Counted from the first letter of the stretch, positions 33,573 through 41,279 are shown. The stretch is 44,439 bases of DNA from an uncultured Muribaculaceae bacterium (GCA_964527005.1 CAZGRH010000001.1:1-44439), one strand, 5' to 3'. Notes: generated by a model from the sequence alone, not told the origin. Translations and numbers: made by a program.

Positions 33573-34559
33573 TTAATTATTTATTAAATATTTTGCTCGG
33601 TCACAAATTTCAAGTTTGTGAAAATTCATTTCTTGCGATTTTTGAATAACATATTTTATTAAATTTATAATGTTTTCATCAGGTTTGGAATTTCGATATT
33701 TGTTCAACCAACTGTTTTCAATGTCTATTACGATTATTTCTATATTATTTTTTTTGTTAAATGTCAGCCAATTATCAATTTCTTGTTTTGTGTCGTTAAT
33801 ATCGGGAATAATTATAAATTTGCTTATTACGTTATAGGATTTTTTTTGAGCTTTTGCATATTTCTTTAAATGATTACATACTTTATCAAAAGCATCAATT
33901 TGTTTTATTTTTTTGTAAGTTTCACGGCAAGAAGAATCAATTGAAATTACAACGGAAAGTTGCCCTGAAGTAATACCTTTTTCAATAGCTTTTGAATATT
34001 TTATACCGGAGGACGGTACCCTTATATTATCAAAACCATTTTTTAGAAATAGGGATATTAATTTGTCAAATTCGGGTAAAATAGTCGGTTCTCCGCCTCC
34101 GAAACCGATTGCTCCGTTTTTGCGAATTATTTTTTTATCAAACATATCTTTTATTATCGGATAAATGTTGTATGTTTTTAGTGAATTGTAGCGTTTTTTA
34201 TCTTCTTCCGTATAGCAATATGTGCAACGGCAATTACATTTTGTAAAATGGTCAAAAATTATACTGTCAAGATAGTTTGCTTGAGTCCATTCTCTTTCTT
34301 CTAAAAATACACACCCTTCGCAACCTTTAACGGTATTTCCGCTTTTTTGAATTTGTCTGTAATTTTCTTTGATTTTAAAAAATTCATCCCAATTGATTTT
34401 TTCACCGTGATAATTCTCAAAAATCATAGAGTTTCCGCCCCCGGGGGCGCTTACATAACAACAAAGCTTTACGTTAGAACCGTAAACACCGTTATCGAAA
34501 CAAACTCCGGATTCTAACCATTTACAACTGATATAACGTTCTTTTTTTATTTCCGACAT
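33573..34559 (-). CDS. Radical SAM protein with a Cys-rich N-terminal extension
   Basis: 328 aa. CNCRCTYC fits CX3CX2C, and GFGGGEPTI is the GGE motif. About 100 aa upstream of the cluster motif carry 7 further Cys (CKWLESGVC, KLCC, GCEGC). Confidence 0.8.
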   Translation of the reverse strand: MSEIKKERYISCKWLESGVCFDNGVYGSNVKLCCYVSAPGGGNSMIFENYHGEKINWDEFFKIKENYRQIQKSGNTVKGCEGCVFLEEREWTQANYLDSIIFDHFTKCNCRCTYCYTEEDKKRYNSLKTYNIYPIIKDMFDKKIIRKNGAIGFGGGEPTILPEFDKLISLFLKNGFDNIRVPSSGIKYSKAIEKGITSGQLSVVISIDSSCRETYKKIKQIDAFDKVCNHLKKYAKAQKKSYNVISKFIIIPDINDTKQEIDNWLTFNKKNNIEIIVIDIENSWLNKYRNSKPDENIINLIKYVIQKSQEMNFHKLEICDRAKYLINN

Positions 34560-34566
34560 AATTCTC

Positions 34567-35541
34567 TTATTTAAAATTACAATTTAAAAGTCTGCAATTC
34601 ATTTTGCATTTTGATATTTTTTCTCTTATTTCATCTGCTTTTGAGCTATACCATAAATCTTGCGGCAGATTATCTTTTAAATTTCCAATCGGCTCCATGC
34701 AGAAACATATTCTCCGATTTCCGTAAGGGTCAATTGCAAAATTATTTTCGCCTACGCTGCATTGAATTGATTGTATATCTTTCGGATTATCAATTAAAAT
34801 TTTAAATGCGTTTAATTGATTAAAACTGTTGCCAATAGGGTATCCTTTATTTTTTAATTCAATCATTTCATCAATTGCATTAAGTGCGGATTGTTTTATA
34901 TTTTGTTTATAAATTTGTTCTTCGGAATTTACTGCCGTAGAAAATGCATCTCCGTTATCCATAAGTTGAAAGCTTACTCCGATGTTTTCTGTTTTGCAAA
35001 ATTCCGCAATAGGTTTTATTTCGTTTAAATTAGACGGCATAACAACGGTTGATAAATAGATATTTTTCCATTTGTGTCCTGTTTTGTGTTTGTTTAAATA
35101 ATTCAAATTTTGAAGAGAATTTATTGTTCTTTCAAACGCATCGTCACGTCCTCTTGAAATATTGTGAATTTTCGGTTCTTTAATTGCGTTTATAGAGAAT
35201 GTTATATTCGTAAAAGCGGAATATAAAACTTTTTCTATTTTGTCCGGAAGTGCTAATCCGTTAGTAACGACATTGACCGTATCGCCTAAATTTGAGGCAT
35301 ATTCCGCCATCTCAAATACATCTTCACGAATAAAAGGTTCTCCGCCTGAAATTATAAATTGATAATTTCCCATCCAAGAGTGCAAGTTAAAAAGAATTGT
35401 TTTCCATTCTTCAATTGTTAATTCTTTTTCTTTCATTTCTGCGGGCGTTTTCCAACCGTTACAAGTAATACATCTCGATTGACAACGTTCCGTATTATTA
35501 AATGAAAATGATATGGGCTTTTTATTCGGTGATATCGGCAT
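34567..35541 (-). CDS. Radical SAM / SPASM(twitch)-domain protein
   Basis: CQSRCITC = CX3CX2C; ISGGEPF is the GGE motif. C-terminal CSVGENNFAIDPYGNRRIC fits CX12GX4C, followed by CKMNCRLLNC. The first ATG (35541) lies 2 nt after the GGDEF gene stop; the track opens at TTG 35550. Confidence 0.85.
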   Translation of the reverse strand: MPISPNKKPISFSFNNTERCQSRCITCNGWKTPAEMKEKELTIEEWKTILFNLHSWMGNYQFIISGGEPFIREDVFEMAEYASNLGDTVNVVTNGLALPDKIEKVLYSAFTNITFSINAIKEPKIHNISRGRDDAFERTINSLQNLNYLNKHKTGHKWKNIYLSTVVMPSNLNEIKPIAEFCKTENIGVSFQLMDNGDAFSTAVNSEEQIYKQNIKQSALNAIDEMIELKNKGYPIGNSFNQLNAFKILIDNPKDIQSIQCSVGENNFAIDPYGNRRICFCMEPIGNLKDNLPQDLWYSSKADEIREKISKCKMNCRLLNCNFK

Positions 35542-35543
35542 AA

Positions 35544-36422
35544 TTAACAATCCAAATTAATTTGTGAAAATAATGTAATCTTGTTTTTTCCTCGATTTTT
35601 TGAATTATAAAGTGCGTGTTCAGCGTATCTTATTAAAGAATTTGCGTTTTCTTCAAAGTTATCAACATTTGGATAAGAGGCGATTCCGCCTGAAATTTTT
35701 ACGGGATGACGTTCATCTTCACCTGCAGGCACAAAAGACATTTTTTCTACATCTCGTCTAAATCTTTCTGCAAAAATAAAGGCATTGGATTCGCTTGTAT
35801 TTGGAAGAATAACCATAAATTCTTCATCACCGTATCTAGTTACTACATCTTCTTTTCTCGCTAAATTTAAAAGCATATCGGATAGCCTTTTAAGTAAAAT
35901 ATCCCCTTGTTCATAACCGTACATATCATTAATAACTTTAAAAAAGTCAATATCGAATAATATGCAAGATACCGGAGTTTTGTATCTTTTTGAGCGTGAT
36001 AATTCTTCTTCAAGTCTTTCAAGTAAATATTTGCGGTTATGTAAACCTGTTAAATCGTCCGTTGTTGAAATATTGGAAATTTTTTCTTTTAGTTCGCTTA
36101 TTTTCGTTAAATTATTGACTTTTACCGAAAAATCAAATTCGTTTATCGGTTTTAAAATATAATCATAAGCTTCTGCACGAATATTTATGTCAACGGGAAT
36201 TTTGTCCGTAACGAATAATACGCAAGTCGGAAATTTCATAACCATTGAAAGTTCTTTTAGCTTTTCATAAGAAATATTTATAATTGCAACAGAAGGATTA
36301 TATTGCTCTATATGAGGCAGTTCAATATTATCAAGAGTTTTAATATCATATTTTGTATATTTTTTTGCTAAATCTGTTAATTGTTGGCTGTTACTTTGTG
36401 AAAAAATAATTAAATTATTCAT
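35544..36422 (-). CDS. Pseudo-receiver + GGDEF-domain protein (diguanylate cyclase family; non-canonical GDEEF active-site motif, RxxD I-site present)
   Basis: DDLTGLHNRKYL ... ILFDIDFFKVINDMYGYEQGD ... ARKEDVVTRYGDEEFMVILP. The N-terminal approx. 120 aa look REC-like (YDYILKP) but have no acidic pocket (LIIFSQSN, VAIINIS). Start placed at ATG 36422 behind GGAAAGGA; the track opens at 36500. Confidence 0.85.
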   Translation of the reverse strand: MNNLIIFSQSNSQQLTDLAKKYTKYDIKTLDNIELPHIEQYNPSVAIINISYEKLKELSMVMKFPTCVLFVTDKIPVDINIRAEAYDYILKPINEFDFSVKVNNLTKISELKEKISNISTTDDLTGLHNRKYLLERLEEELSRSKRYKTPVSCILFDIDFFKVINDMYGYEQGDILLKRLSDMLLNLARKEDVVTRYGDEEFMVILPNTSESNAFIFAERFRRDVEKMSFVPAGEDERHPVKISGGIASYPNVDNFEENANSLIRYAEHALYNSKNRGKNKITLFSQINLDC

Positions 36423-36559
36423 TAAATAATCCTTTCCGTTTATTAATTTAATTTTATCAAATTTCTTAAAAAAGTAAATAAATATAGTATTTTGTTTCAT
36501 ATTTTAAATAACTTGCCTGCGTGAAAGTTTATAAATATAATATAATTGGGAGGGATATC

Positions 36560-37732
36560 GTGCAAAGACAAAATTACACTTGCCAATATGAAACTGATAT
36601 GTATACATCAGCTTATGAACAGTATTATTTTAAAAATATGTCAACGGCACGAGTTAAACCGATAAATCATCAAGTTTATAAGTCGGTGAAAAGAAAACGC
36701 AAAAATAATATTTTAAATAAAATTATAACTTTTTCTTTTTTTATGGCTTTGTTGTTCGGAGTGTTCCCGTATTCTTTTAATAACTATGTTACAAATCTTT
36801 TTCCTCCGAATTCAAAAAAAATGTTAAATGTCGATTATAACCATTTGTTGTATCCAACGAATGATTATTTATATAAAGATTTGTTCTTGGGAAAATATAT
36901 AATTAAAAATACCGAATATTCAAAACCTTTGATGATAGATATGAAAGAATCTTATGAACGACAAGGTTTGAAAAAACAATTGTTAAATTTGGCTTCCGGC
37001 TATAAAAAAATATCACCGTCAATTTATGTATGGGAATATGATACAAAGTCTTATGTAAATATTAATGCTGATGATATATATCCTGCGGCAAGTATAATAA
37101 AAATACCTGTTTTAATTGAAATGTTTAGAGAAATTGAAAAAGGCAATTTCGGCTTATATGATAAAATGGTTTTGGAAGATTATTACAGAGCGTCGGGGTC
37201 CGGAAAACTTCAATATTCTCAAGGTGGAATTGCTCATACAATGGATTATTTGGCAAGAATAATGATAGAAAATTCCGATAATTCTTCTACAAATATGATA
37301 ATGGCGAAAATGGGCGGAATGCCGGAAGTAAATCGTGCATTAAATAAATGGGGTTTACATCGGACTCATATTAATAATTGGTTGCCTGATTTGGCGGGTA
37401 CTAATGTTACAACCGCAAAAGAAATGGCAAAAATGCTATATAATATTGACTCTACAAATATTTTAAATTCCGATTCAAAAAAGCATATATCTGATTACCT
37501 TTCTCATGTTAAAAATAATCGACTTTTACGGGCGGGATTGCCTGCGGGAGCTCAGTTATTGCATAAAACAGGAGATATAGGTTTTATGCTCGGTGATGCG
37601 GGTATAGTTAAAACTGCCAACGGTAAAAAATACCTTGTTGTTATTTTGGCAAAACGTCCTTATAATAATCAACAAGGCAAAAATTTTATAGTTGAAGCTT
37701 CTAAATTAATTTACAATAATATTGCATATTAA
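36560..37732 (+). CDS. Membrane-anchored class A beta-lactamase-like serine hydrolase (PF13354-like)
   Basis: SxxK (AASIIKIP), SDN (ENSDNSS) and KTG (HKTGDIG) in the correct order. One N-terminal TM helix (IITFSFFMALLFGVF). GTG 36560 is preceded by GGGAGGG at 6 nt; the track opens at GTG 36521. Confidence 0.8.
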   Translation: MQRQNYTCQYETDMYTSAYEQYYFKNMSTARVKPINHQVYKSVKRKRKNNILNKIITFSFFMALLFGVFPYSFNNYVTNLFPPNSKKMLNVDYNHLLYPTNDYLYKDLFLGKYIIKNTEYSKPLMIDMKESYERQGLKKQLLNLASGYKKISPSIYVWEYDTKSYVNINADDIYPAASIIKIPVLIEMFREIEKGNFGLYDKMVLEDYYRASGSGKLQYSQGGIAHTMDYLARIMIENSDNSSTNMIMAKMGGMPEVNRALNKWGLHRTHINNWLPDLAGTNVTTAKEMAKMLYNIDSTNILNSDSKKHISDYLSHVKNNRLLRAGLPAGAQLLHKTGDIGFMLGDAGIVKTANGKKYLVVILAKRPYNNQQGKNFIVEASKLIYNNIAY

Positions 37733-37744
37733 TTATATTCGCAA

Positions 37745-39238
37745 TTATGCGTATACATAAGGCGGACCGTTTTTTGTTTCAAACAGAATGTTATCAGCAA
37801 GTTGTTTTAATTCTTCTTTTGATTTGTTACCGCTCGTTGCTTGTCTGTCAAAATTTTCTATTAACGGATTAATTGCACTTTCTTTTTTTGCTTTAAAATT
37901 TCTGATTTCAACATCTACAAGACGTTTTCTTAAATTTAATTCTGTTTTTGCATTTTCTTTCAGTACTGCAACATCTTTAATAGCGTCAATTGCTTGTTTA
38001 AAAATATAACCGATTGCACTTGATAATGTAAATGCGTGAAAAATATATCTTGTAAATTTGTTTTTCGGATTTAGAACCCAATTATATAAATGTCCTCTGT
38101 TTTCATCTATATAGCAATAATATTGAATTTTTTTGGGAATACCGCCAAGCGCCGTGGGTGCATCCGCAAATATCATTTTTTTTGTAGTTTCAACCGAATT
38201 AATAATTTCTTGAATTTTATCATTGCTTAAATTATATTTTTGTCCGATTTCTTTTACAAATTCGGGCTTTGCGCAAATGGATTTCAGCATTTCAATAATT
38301 TGCGGAATATCATCGTTATTTGAATTTTGGCTCATTTTTTTTATGGATTCTATTGTCGCTTCTGTTATGTTGTTGGCAAAATTATTTGTTGCCTGAGCGG
38401 TTTTCCTAATATTTGATATACTGTATTTGCCCAGTAAAATTGCACTAATAACGACTCCTGCCGTAAGTGCAATATATTTTATATTGTTTTTCATTTCTTT
38501 TTTATTTGTATTTTCGTCTTTGTTTTTATTTTTAATAGGATTGTTTTTGAAAGAAATATATTGATTTAATAAATTTGAGTTTCCGAAAGAATTTTGTTCA
38601 TTATTTAAAATAAAATCAAAATGTTTTATATTTTTGTTCATTAATTCGTTAACAACATCCAGTTTTCCCGAAAAAGATTGTCTTTCAACATCAATTAAAT
38701 TTTCTTGAAGATATTTTTCTATATCTGCAGATTTTTTCTTTGTCCAAATTTCTTTAACTCCGTCAACAAATTTTGTTGCGGTAATTGTAATTGCACTCAT
38801 TAAAAACACTGCGGCAGCGCCTAAGATGTTTTTAAAATTAGGATCTCTTATTGCTCTGTATAGTGCAAATTGCGGTTCTTCTTTTATGTTCATGTTTACC
38901 GCCAAATCGGGTAATTGTTCAAAACTTTTTGAATTAAATATTGCATTTGACGATTTTTTTAAAATTATACTTAATCCCGCACAACCCGATAATATTATTC
39001 CTGTTCCTATTAATAACGGTTTTATTGCATTTTTAACATTAAAACAACTTTCTTCTTTATTGTTATTGTCAATTTGTGTTGATTTAGTGTTTGTCGGATT
39101 ATAAATCAAAAGTGAATTTTCAATTTCATTAAAATTAAATTGTTGTTGAGGTTGCTTTATGCAATTGTTTAATAATACACCTTTAAGTGTTCCGTTAATT
39201 TTTTGTTTTTCTTGTGCTTTAATCATTCCTACATTCAT
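37745..39238 (-). CDS. Hypothetical multi-pass membrane protein (497 aa), second gene of the riboswitch-led operon
   Basis: Hydrophobic helices LLIGTGIILSGCAGLSIIL, ILGAAAVFLMSAITITA, IALTAGVVISAILLG and possibly FHAFTLSSAIGYIF, separated by long N/K-rich soluble segments. No family recognised. Overlaps the upstream gene by about 20 nt. Confidence 0.6.
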   Translation of the reverse strand: MNVGMIKAQEKQKINGTLKGVLLNNCIKQPQQQFNFNEIENSLLIYNPTNTKSTQIDNNNKEESCFNVKNAIKPLLIGTGIILSGCAGLSIILKKSSNAIFNSKSFEQLPDLAVNMNIKEEPQFALYRAIRDPNFKNILGAAAVFLMSAITITATKFVDGVKEIWTKKKSADIEKYLQENLIDVERQSFSGKLDVVNELMNKNIKHFDFILNNEQNSFGNSNLLNQYISFKNNPIKNKNKDENTNKKEMKNNIKYIALTAGVVISAILLGKYSISNIRKTAQATNNFANNITEATIESIKKMSQNSNNDDIPQIIEMLKSICAKPEFVKEIGQKYNLSNDKIQEIINSVETTKKMIFADAPTALGGIPKKIQYYCYIDENRGHLYNWVLNPKNKFTRYIFHAFTLSSAIGYIFKQAIDAIKDVAVLKENAKTELNLRKRLVDVEIRNFKAKKESAINPLIENFDRQATSGNKSKEELKQLADNILFETKNGPPYVYA

Positions 39239-39947
39239 CTTTATCCCTATTCCTGTCTTTTTTCTTTCCTGACATTATTTTTATAATATATTTCTTTATT
39301 TCTCTTGATTTAAAAATTTGTAAATTTTCTTCATTGTTATAATTTTCATCTTCCATTTCCGGAAAAAATAACAGTACAAATTTTTTTAATTTCTTTTTAA
39401 CTTTTTCAATAACTTCTTTTTGAATAAATTTTTTAAATTCTCCGAATATGGCAATTAATTTTTCCGTAGCATGTTGAATTATTTGGTTTATATTTTGACG
39501 TAAATTGGCGAATTTCGTTAGTAAATTTGGTATATTTGACATAAAATTTAAAAACGGAGTTATCAAAATATTATTTATGAATGCAATCGGTTTTTGTAAA
39601 AATTGAGGCGCATTATTTTGCAGAATTAACAGTGAGTTTTGAATTTTTTCCGCAAATTTATCTATATTTTTTCCTAATCGGGTTAAATATTCCAATTCTT
39701 TTTGAAAACGTTCTTGAGCATTTTCAACTCTTTGTTCTTGAGCTTTCATTGCTAAGCCGACTGCATAGCACTTCATAAAAGACCATTCGTTTGATGCTTT
39801 TATTGGTTGGGAATTTTTTATTTTGGCTCCACCGCCTCCGCCCATAGCTCCGCTGCAAATAGGACAAGCTGCGGGTGGCAAGCCATGAGGGCATAATCCC
39901 GCTTTATTTGTTTGTTGAGATATGGGTGATGTTAAGTTTGTAGACAT
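39219..39947 (-). CDS. Hypothetical protein with an N-terminal CPHG-x6-CPxC motif and a Gly5 run, first gene of the riboswitch-led operon
   Basis: Starts MSTNLTSPISQQTNKAGLCPHGLPPAACPICSGAMGGGGGAK; the rest is predicted helical and K/E/Q-rich. ATG 39947 follows GTAAGG + 5 nt. The track's upstream extension to 39983 would run into the structured leader. Confidence 0.6.
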   Translation of the reverse strand: MSTNLTSPISQQTNKAGLCPHGLPPAACPICSGAMGGGGGAKIKNSQPIKASNEWSFMKCYAVGLAMKAQEQRVENAQERFQKELEYLTRLGKNIDKFAEKIQNSLLILQNNAPQFLQKPIAFINNILITPFLNFMSNIPNLLTKFANLRQNINQIIQHATEKLIAIFGEFKKFIQKEVIEKVKKKLKKFVLLFFPEMEDENYNNEENLQIFKSREIKKYIIKIMSGKKKDRNRDKDECRND

Positions 39948-40090
39948 AAAAACCTTACTTTTACGGTACGTAAGGCAGCTCAACCAACATTAAATATTAA
40001 TCGGATTTCGCAATTAATATTTACTATGGAGCATTCCGGCTTTAACGGTCGCGATCCGGCTCGGGGCTTGCACCCGATTTCCTCGTTTTT
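39948..40090 (-). promoter_or_regulatory. Cobalamin riboswitch-like leader (short, class II / AdoCbl-variant-like aptamer plus expression platform)
   Basis: GC-rich island in AT-rich DNA. The minus strand (40085 to 40028) reads CGAGGAAAUCGGGUGCAAGCCCCGAGCCGGAUCGCGACCGUUAAAGCCGGAAUGCUCC. Elements: GGAA; helix UCGGG/CCCGA capped by the loop UGCAAGC; ACCG-UUAAAGC-CGG hairpin; then AAUGCUCC pairing back to GAG. This matches the conserved cobalamin aptamer core as I remember it. Downstream there is a perfect 10-bp hairpin (39992-40022) and a CCUUAC/GUAAGG helix (39970-39975 / 39953-39958) that covers the RBS. Confidence 0.6.
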
Positions 40091-40095
40091 ATAAC

Positions 40096-40119
40096 TGTTA
40101 CAAATTATTTATTGTAACA
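40096..40119. other. 8-bp inverted repeat hairpin between ychF and the riboswitch-like leader
   Basis: TGTTACAA (40096-40103) / TTGTAACA (40112-40119) with an 8-nt loop. The T-tract (TTTTTATTTT) follows it only on the + strand, where no gene ends. On the minus strand it could be a U-tract-poor ychF terminator or part of the leader RNA. Confidence 0.3.
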
Positions 40120-40181
40120 ACACTTTTTATTTTAGCATAAACAAAAATTATTTTAGCAAAACAAACTGAGAAATATTCGTT

Positions 40182-41279
40182 TTACACATTAAATCTAAAG
40201 TGAACGATGTCGCCGTCTTGAATTATATAATCTTTACCTTCAAGTCTTGTTACCCCACGTTCTCTTGCAACGACATAAGAACCTGCATCTACAAAGTCGT
40301 TATATCCTGTAACTTCGGCTCTGATAAACCCTTTTTCAAAGTCAGTATGAATAACACCTGCAGCTTGAGGTGCTTTGGAGCCTGATTTTACCGTCCAAGC
40401 GTGAACTTCTTTTTCTCCTGCCGTAATAAATGTCGTCAAATTAAGTAATTTATATACGGATTTAATCATTCGTTCAATGCCGGAGCTTTCAACTCCGAGG
40501 TCTTTTAAATAGTCTTTTGCTTCTTCTTGTGATAAATCAACTAATTCAGCTTCTATTTTTGCAGAAATAACAACAACGTCAGCACCATGCTTGTTTGCAT
40601 ATTCTTTTACCGTATCAACATAAGCATTGCCGTTCGCTAAATCTGTTTCGCTTACATTTGCCGCATAAATTACCGGTTTTATGCACATTAGTTGAGAATT
40701 CTTTGCAACAACTAATTCGTCATCTTCAAAATGTTCTTCGGGATTAATAAATGTTTCTTTGGAAATTAATTCATATAATTTTGAAAGTACTTTTTGTTCT
40801 AAAATTGCTTGTTTATCACCTGTTTTTGCTATTTTTGAAATTCTTTCAATTCTTTTTTCCAAAGATGCCATGTCGGCAAGGGCTAATTCCGTGTTAATAA
40901 TTTCAATATCATCAATCGGGTTTATTTTTCCGGAAACGTGAATTGTATTTACGTCATCAAAACATCTGACAACTTGTATAATTGCATCAACTTCTCTGAT
41001 ATTTGCCAAAAATTGGTTGCCAAGCCCTTCTCCTTTGCTTGCACCTTTAACTAAACCAGCTATATCAACAAATTCAACGGCTGTCGGAATAATAGTTTGT
41101 GTTTTTACCAGATTTGCTAAAATCTGTAATCTTTCATCAGGAACATTTACGACTCCAACATTCGGCTCTATTGTGCAAAACGGAAAGTTTGCGCTTTGTG
41201 CATTGTTTGATGATGTAAGTGCATTAAATAAAGTTGATTTTCCCACATTGGGAAGTCCTACAATTCCTGTTCTTAACAT
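40182..41279 (-). CDS. ychF: Ribosome-binding ATPase YchF (Obg-like GTPase family)
   Basis: 365 aa. [28 protein letters not shown], and a C-terminal TGS/YchF domain ([26 protein letters not shown]). Confidence 0.95.

Follow-up and report, generated by a model that had tools for sequence, protein, structure and literature searches.

A class-II cobalamin riboswitch probably governs a conserved orphan operon of gut Melainabacteria

A leader on the minus strand of the window (the whole stretch of 44,439 nucleotides analysed here) is very probably a class-II cobalamin (corrinoid) riboswitch of the RF01689/AdoCbl-II type, and it would most likely act as an OFF switch on the two-gene operon that follows it. 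The kind of riboswitch is itself known, and sequence comparison supports the leader as an added member of that vitamin B12 family. What is new is its occurrence over a conserved orphan operon in gut Melainabacteria, where it offers a testable handle on orphan proteins of an uncultured lineage with a little-known vitamin economy. An earlier note, made from the sequence of this DNA, had placed the leader with the class-II or AdoCbl-variant riboswitches. This call is borne out, since RF01689 is the best match, orthologous leaders score above the gathering threshold, the helices covary and the same aptamer subtype is found in B12 regulons.

The leader and its aptamer core

The leader is held in the interval between the ychF stop codon (40182) and the ATG of gene 1 (39947) on the minus strand, to which all the leader elements below belong. 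The GC content is 57% at 40020-40079 and only 20-33% on either side, as the earlier note had remarked; the minus-strand sequence that it quoted was identical on re-reading. The island reads, in order, GAG, GAAA, a UCGGG/CCCGA hairpin, a single G, a CCG/CGA hairpin, a CCG/CGG hairpin, AAUG and CUC. Together these elements build the aptamer core, a four-way junction P3-P4-P5-P6 (40027-40086), identified by a lineage covariance model (R1, 80.3 bits) and by covariation. It carries the conserved elements GGAAA, GGUGnAA and AGYCGGAAUGC.

The closing helix P3 pairs GAG (40082-40084) with CUC (40029-40031), the latter facing G40084, A40083 and G40082; CUC and the preceding J6/3 AAUG (40032-40035) make up 40029-40035. 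P4 (40061-40077) consists of UCGGG/CCCGA with the 7-nt L4 UGCAAGC, which is at the position of the class-II T-loop. Both helices, already recognized in the earlier note, are backed by sequence, the Rfam match and covariation. P5 (40049-40059) has CCG/CGA strands, mismatched at the outer C.A in the window, around the L5 sequence GAUCG, and P6 (40036-40048) has CCG/CGG strands around the L6 sequence UUAAAGC; these two are backed by covariation. The P6 hairpin had also been seen before and taken for a compensatory swap. The hairpin is there, but it is the ordinary P6 of the model.

The junction is followed by two hairpins. Hairpin 1, or P13 (39991-40023), is defined by folding, homology and covariation, and has an AU-rich stem with the loop L13 CGAAAUC (40004-40010). 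It had been described as a perfect 10-bp hairpin, which is right as to the loop but not as to the stem, which has 12-13 bp. A linker of 14 nt (39977-39990), whose GAGC (39978-39981) is complementary to GCUC (40029-40032), leads to hairpin 2 (39953-39976). Sequence and folding define in the latter an anti-SD strand (G)CCUUAC, an 11-nt loop and the SD strand GUAAGG, with 39970-39975 pairing with 39953-39958. Hairpin 2 is kept across group-A leaders. It is followed by a run of five U residues (39948-39952) and by the ATG of gene 1 (39945-39947; 39945-39952 together), the N-terminus of gene 1 being aligned with those of its orthologs. All the parts of the SD-covering CCUUAC/GUAAGG helix that were reported earlier, down to the U run before the ATG, are thus present. 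The folding energy of the leader is not out of the ordinary (z = -1.0).

A scan of the entire window against Rfam at gathering thresholds returned no matches. A sensitive scan of 39850-40250 gave a single credible one, to RF01689 (AdoCbl-II) over model positions 1-81, with 33.5 bits where the gathering score is 36.5 (E = 3.1e-6 for the 401-nt search). The whole match (40023-40095) includes a weak outer helix, GUUAUA/CAUAGU, that corresponds to P1 of the model and contains a mismatch. Overlapping, lower-scoring matches of the same clan to class I (RF00174) were set aside in favour of RF01689. The latter family is set apart from class I by the lack of a peripheral P7-P11 extension, and indeed the core spans only 60 nt, P6 has 3 bp and a 7-nt loop, and no sequence able to form a peripheral domain was found between P6 and P3. 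Of the two Rfam families that the earlier note had named, RF01689 is therefore the better, and it is matched over its full length, but at 3 bits below its gathering score. The earlier note held that lack of a hit above that score would count against the riboswitch. On this reckoning the window copy falls short when taken alone, but the comparative data, which were used because the Rfam match by itself is a near miss, override it. A further consequence is that standard, threshold-based annotation would miss the riboswitch of the window.

Gene 1 has 159 homologs, none of which bears a name, and these come from Gastranaerophilales/Melainabacteria-type assemblies. A genome scan for gene 1 yielded 61 loci, every one of them from Gastranaerophilales/Melainabacteria, and nearly all share the leader. 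In 9 of the 17 orthologous loci scanned, an RF01689 match scores above gathering (38.3-47.5 bits) and is identically placed with respect to the gene. The other eight are below it, so that low Rfam scores are general in the lineage. A covariance model was made for the lineage (60 positions, 14 bp), from a seed alignment built without the sequences with a bulged P4. It finds a single copy in the window (E ~3e-22) and one copy in 59 of the 61 loci, in every case immediately before the gene; no further copies were found elsewhere in ~525 kb. The two loci without a match are L015, which is truncated, and L012, from which the aptamer has been lost.

Covariation was assessed over the 14 core pairs in an alignment of 60 sequences. 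This alignment is fitted to the model, which somewhat inflates pairing, with 97.7% of the cells in standard pairs as against 23-51% when the 3' partners are slid. Double-sided changes occur in 10 of the 14 pairs (117 cells), and none of 500 shuffles matched the observed covariation score. In P4, where 99.6% of the cells are paired, compensatory changes are seen at four of the five pairs (UA/CG; AU/GC/UA/CG; AU/GC/GU/CG/UA; GC/AU). P5 alternates between UA and CG, and P6, with all cells paired, contains CG, AU and UA. Covariation among related leaders, which the earlier note had called for, thus argues for every helix from P3 to P6, and does so robustly in view of the slid controls and of how many pair types occur.

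Most orthologs have a conserved sigma-70-type promoter (-35 TTTACN or TTGACN, 17-nt spacer, -10 TAnnAT) whose end is only 7-17 nt ahead of the first G of P3 (for example, L023:3820-3866). Because the promoter abuts P3, the RNA probably starts at or just before that helix, so that transcription of a 5' strand for P1 is unlikely and the P1 of the model would not form. Its probable absence is plausibly why the Rfam scores sit near the threshold. The ortholog -35/-10 pattern has no match in the window at 40087-40130, where reading of the sequence suggests a candidate extended -10 element, TGTTACAAT (40111-40119). Group-A relatives have a conserved GUUAAUAY (GUUAAUAC) before P3, and the window has UAUAAAAAC.

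Might the window copy be a decaying relic that dropped below the threshold through loss of function? Its Rfam score, the C.A at the outer P5 pair, the divergent 5' element, the unrecognizable promoter and the missing third operon gene (see below) could be read in this way, as could the complete loss of the aptamer in the relative L012. However, the lineage model ranks the window 14th of 60, the 13 other core pairs are intact, as are all four kissing pairs, and the C.A mismatch is common to L001, L022, L025 and L029. Sub-threshold scores are, moreover, the rule in nearly half of the loci scanned, plausibly through the absence of P1. Decay is therefore very improbable.

The kissing loop and the expression platform

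P13 is homologous in all 60 leaders, with a long stem and a loop of 6-8 nt that reads C-G-N(1-3)-N-Y-M. Its pairing with L5 was assessed by setting the first two and last two bases of L13 against L5 positions 38, 37, 35 and 34. With the caveat that 37 of the loops were taken by a geometry-only rule and 23 by homology, 239 of the 240 cells are paired and compensatory change is found at all four central pairs. Three of these pairs are GC 56/AU 4, CG 59/GC 1 and GC 30/UA 30, and the remaining one is AU 30/GC 27/UA 1/GU 1, plus one A.C mismatch. In a formal count on the 13 distinct rows, 98.1% of the cells are paired, compared with 73.8 +/- 4.1% in shuffles; double changes affect 4/4 pairs and the covariation score is 0.66 versus 0.21. 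The four covarying pairs flank one to three unpaired L13 bases. In the window they are G40052-C40010, C40053-G40009, A40055-U40005 and G40056-C40004, with A40008 and A40007 unpaired and A40006 facing U40054. The adjoining pair 33-39 (G33-C39) closes P5 and belongs to it, since L003 and L024 have U-A there and show no compensating change in L13. Thus, of the approximately eight loop-loop pairs suggested by the earlier note, four (CG:CG and GA:UC) are backed by covariation and the rest are not. The leader family as a whole provides some 60 or more natural L5-L13 variants with clean compensatory changes.

In the more distant leaders, the SD-hairpin loop of L032-L035, L038, L041, L042, L049, L050, L052-L055 and L061 contains (C/U)UGCGG(C/U), which is complementary to L5 and the 3' strand of P5, GCCGCA(G/A). 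It is a second potential partner of L5, rivalling hairpin 1, and shows partial covariation (CAG/CUG versus CAA/UUG). The motif is absent from the group to which the window belongs.

The architecture recalls that of the env8 HyCbl riboswitch, a Cbl-IIa member of RF01689 (AdoCbl-variant/AdoCbl-II; PDB 4FRG/4FRN; PMC6158498). Both have a compact P3-P6 four-way junction without peripheral extension, 7-nt L4 and L6 loops and GGAAA in J3/4. In env8, the L5-L13 helix is broken by two unpaired L13 purines, the cobalamin contacts this helix, and an L13 of this type must be presented on a stem-loop (PMC5028336). The kissing loop of the window is also carried by a stem-loop and likewise interrupted, as 2 bp, AA, U-A and 2 bp. 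The differences are equally clear. The env8 L13 contains the RBS (PMC5028336), whereas L13 of the window (CGAAAUC) is RBS-free and the SD, GUAAGG, is placed in a second hairpin 14 nt downstream. The earlier statement that the loop-loop contact has the geometry used in this class therefore holds for the interrupted kissing loop but not for the env8 arrangement of the RBS. Furthermore, P13 is short in env8 and has 12-13 bp here, and the number of unpaired L13 bases varies here with the loop length, whereas this number is reported to be strictly conserved across the 144-sequence family alignment (PMC5028336). Finally, Cbl-IIa riboswitches feature a P1 helix and a J1/3 T-loop that docks on J6/3 (PMC6158498), while in the present lineage P1 is weak or absent and J6/3 reads GGAAUGC. 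In its reduced or absent J1/3 and P1 region, the class-II core resembles the Enterococcus faecalis-type Cbl-II riboswitches without J1/3 (PMC6158498). Those serve the eut system, in contrast with the orphan genes found here behind an RNA that apparently starts at or near P3.

The overall order of elements is that of E. coli btuB and P. megaterium metE. In platforms of this type the kissing loop stabilizes P13, and a separate RBS or terminator hairpin comes next (PMC10327014). However, the aptamers of these two riboswitches are of class I and carry peripheral domains, and their kissing loop is a contiguous one of 5 bp. The 3' strand of P13 in metE forms an antiterminator with the 5' strand of the terminator, and no such pairing was found in the window. 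P13 is long here and stable by itself. The separation of the kissing hairpin from the SD hairpin makes the leader a useful subject for studies of the way in which docking is relayed.

When the folding ensemble is constrained, the SD is predominantly paired both ways, with an unpaired probability of 0.17 when the aptamer is forced and 0.25 when it is forbidden, a difference that is not decisive; hairpin 2 forms under both constraints. A search of the leader for an anti-sequestor of the SD hairpin found none. Three candidates were tried and rejected. The 3' strand of P13, which would play this part or that of an antiterminator on the metE model, lacks complementarity to CCUUAC and to the 5' strand of hairpin 2. 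The 5' strand of P4 (UAAGG) could mimic the SD and free the anti-SD, but the window has UCGGG there and no covariation is seen. As to a pairing of L5 GGA with the anti-SD UCC in the unliganded state, the GGU of L5 in L009 is compensated in L13 and not in the anti-SD.

The sole recurrent alternative pairing joins the 3' strand of P3 and its tail (GCUC...) to the linker just 5' of the anti-SD, and this is also where the leader departs from btuB and metE. The linker versions are ...GAGC, UGGAG, AAGAG and UUUUGGGU. Tail and linker of the same leader form duplexes with a mean of -7.56 kcal/mol, compared with -6.21 +/- 0.31 kcal/mol for permuted combinations (0/300 reach the observed value). The pairing is missing in L022, L026 and L028.

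The OFF switch would act mainly on translation initiation, by way of the kissing loop and the SD hairpin, and we infer the step that couples docking to expression as follows. The corrinoid would bind between the junction and the L5-L13 helix, locking the docked state and P3. Without ligand, GAGC of the linker would pair instead with GCUC of the P3 3' strand, thus extending P13 and opening the aptamer. Ligand binding would free the linker, and so favour the fully closed SD hairpin or hinder 30S loading. As an outcome, gene 1 and gene 2, which overlaps it, would be translated less, possibly with weak termination at the U run.

An alternative model keeps the riboswitch but assumes that its output is mainly transcriptional, hairpin 2 and the ensuing U5-U7 being a ligand-favoured intrinsic terminator that excludes the start codon from the transcript. 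Almost all leaders of groups A and B have a run of 5-7 U residues directly after hairpin 2, the purine tract 5' of the anti-SD can lengthen the stem in many of them, and corrinoid riboswitches in which P13 is followed by a terminator are known (PMC10327014). However, the stem has merely 6-7 bp, of which 2-3 are G-C, and a loop of 8-13 nt, and a promoter and terminator scan called nothing, hairpin 2 included. It must also be noted that the U run doubles as the SD-AUG spacer and that, as stated above, an antiterminator pairing between P13 and hairpin 2 was not found. We regard a mainly transcriptional output as rather unlikely, and keep to control of translation initiation.

The controlled genes and the ligand

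Gene 1 (39219-39947, minus strand) encodes an orphan protein of 242 aa, in which the N-terminal motif CPHGLPPxACPxC is invariant. A Gly-rich linker is present, and the AF2 model shows a long helical hairpin at residues 57-194 (pLDDT ~80-90). Gene 2 (37745-39238, minus strand) encodes a 497-aa orphan protein that is all-helical and predicted to be membrane-embedded, with hydrophobic segments, very long helices and strongly conserved motifs such as FADAPTALGGIPKKIQYYCYIDENRGHLYNW. The mean pLDDT of the AF2 models of the two proteins is ~66. The first 20 nt of gene 2 coincide with the last 20 nt of gene 1 (39219-39238). This suggests translational coupling, in which case repression of gene 1 initiation would lower gene 2 expression as well.

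Neither protein has a match in sequence searches of Pfam, NCBIfam and the PDB. Foldseek against the PDB gave nothing significant, the best result for gene 1 being the hairpins of ESCRT-III/PspA/Vipp1 (E ~1). A profile search with gene 2 among 1.84 billion representatives returned just 161 look-alikes or fragments. Homologs carry the precomputed Pfam tags PF26039 and PF21203, which were judged not meaningful. Searches of the literature for B12 in Melainabacteria/Gastranaerophilales brought up nothing about the gene 1-gene 2 operon.

The pair is kept in 48 of the 61 loci, and its upstream neighbour varies. A third orphan gene, of ~135-170 aa, follows on the same strand in 39 of the 61 loci (L018:6264-6776); it was found among L002-L030 and L036-L059 and has the motif ...LDKMLDKGVKGIDKMYP...SPNVQVMLAGIYRKTLVPDAFGPL...FDPTEEIGGAI. 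This gene is absent from the window, where a beta-lactamase-family gene lies on the opposite strand instead (36521-37745). In L012 (L012:3740-4000), the synteny of ychF and the cassette is retained, third gene included, and the aptamer is absent, which looks like a natural riboswitch loss. A further subgroup (L036, L037, L039, L040, L043, L047, L051, L057 and L060) has long leaders of 150-220 nt, in which an extra conserved hairpin (GAAAGAUUGGAAGGUCUUUC) is inserted directly 3' of the aptamer. Its members keep the third gene and have no gene-2 homolog by tblastn.

Gene 1 itself contains a second GC-rich patch (39810-39899, 52-58% GC). The patch codes for the invariant CPHGLPPAACPICSG motif and a Gly run, which points to coding constraint rather than to an RNA element. 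Elsewhere, the window consists of ordinary housekeeping DNA and contains no B12 genes. Downstream of the cassette region are a pair of neighbouring radical-SAM genes and one for a GGDEF diguanylate cyclase (33573-36500), and nothing was found that ties them to the riboswitch.

Riboswitches point reliably to the function of the genes that they control. What follows a cobalamin riboswitch is nearly always a gene for B12 transport, for B12 biosynthesis or for a B12-independent substitute, and several components of B12 uptake were first flagged through their riboswitches. Since the orphan genes are restricted to Melainabacteria and lie under such a riboswitch, they would be part of the B12 regulon of this lineage. 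More tentatively, and with less than even confidence, the cassette (gene 1, gene 2 and, in most relatives, the third protein of ~160 aa) may represent an unrecognised B12-linked function of these non-photosynthetic relatives of cyanobacteria. Corrinoid capture or uptake, corrinoid handling and a B12-sparing membrane system are candidate functions. If this reading is true, the P1-less, promoter-abutting aptamer with its RBS-free L13 would also amount to a distinct wiring of a class-II riboswitch to expression.

The nature of the ligand is approached through other genes. A metagenome scan with a pattern specific for the aptamer subtype, in which L5 was left free, detected at least 120 loci. Among the matches listed, the CPHGLPP gene is found downstream by tblastn in at least 35 loci, all on low-GC contigs. 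Others listed precede TonB-dependent receptors (Plug and barrel), the anaerobic ribonucleotide reductase NrdD, which has an ATP-cone, and a NIR_SIR protein resembling CobG. The NrdD of L097 is in a 90%-identity cluster that includes a protein named by NCBI as from a Candidatus Gastranaerophilales bacterium. The presence of the same aptamer subtype before B12-regulon genes, also within the lineage, is good support for a corrinoid ligand. A preference for AdoCbl, MeCbl or HyCbl is not readable from the sequence (PMC6158498).

It could be argued that the aptamer senses an incomplete corrinoid or another cobamide, or that B12 is merely an environmental cue for an operon unrelated to B12 metabolism. 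Indeed, the controlled proteins are orphans without a B12 signature, and J6/3 (GGAAUGC) departs from the Rfam consensus, cGAGcGCC. The selectivity of class II varies widely and is set by J1/3 together with J6/3 (PMC6158498), and an activating riboswitch that responds to cobinamide exists (PMC10327014). However, the same J6/3 subtype also precedes the TonB-dependent receptor, nrdD and cobG-like genes, so that a corrinoid is the economical reading. We give these alternatives little credence, while noting that a role of B12 as a signal for the operon is compatible with the class-II corrinoid riboswitch favoured here.

The aptamer subtype also occurs before unannotated ORFs on low-GC metagenome contigs (L132:1151-2760, with a 506-aa protein; L081:1737-2380; L069:267-1130). 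Judging from their leaders, these ORFs may be further members of B12 regulons.
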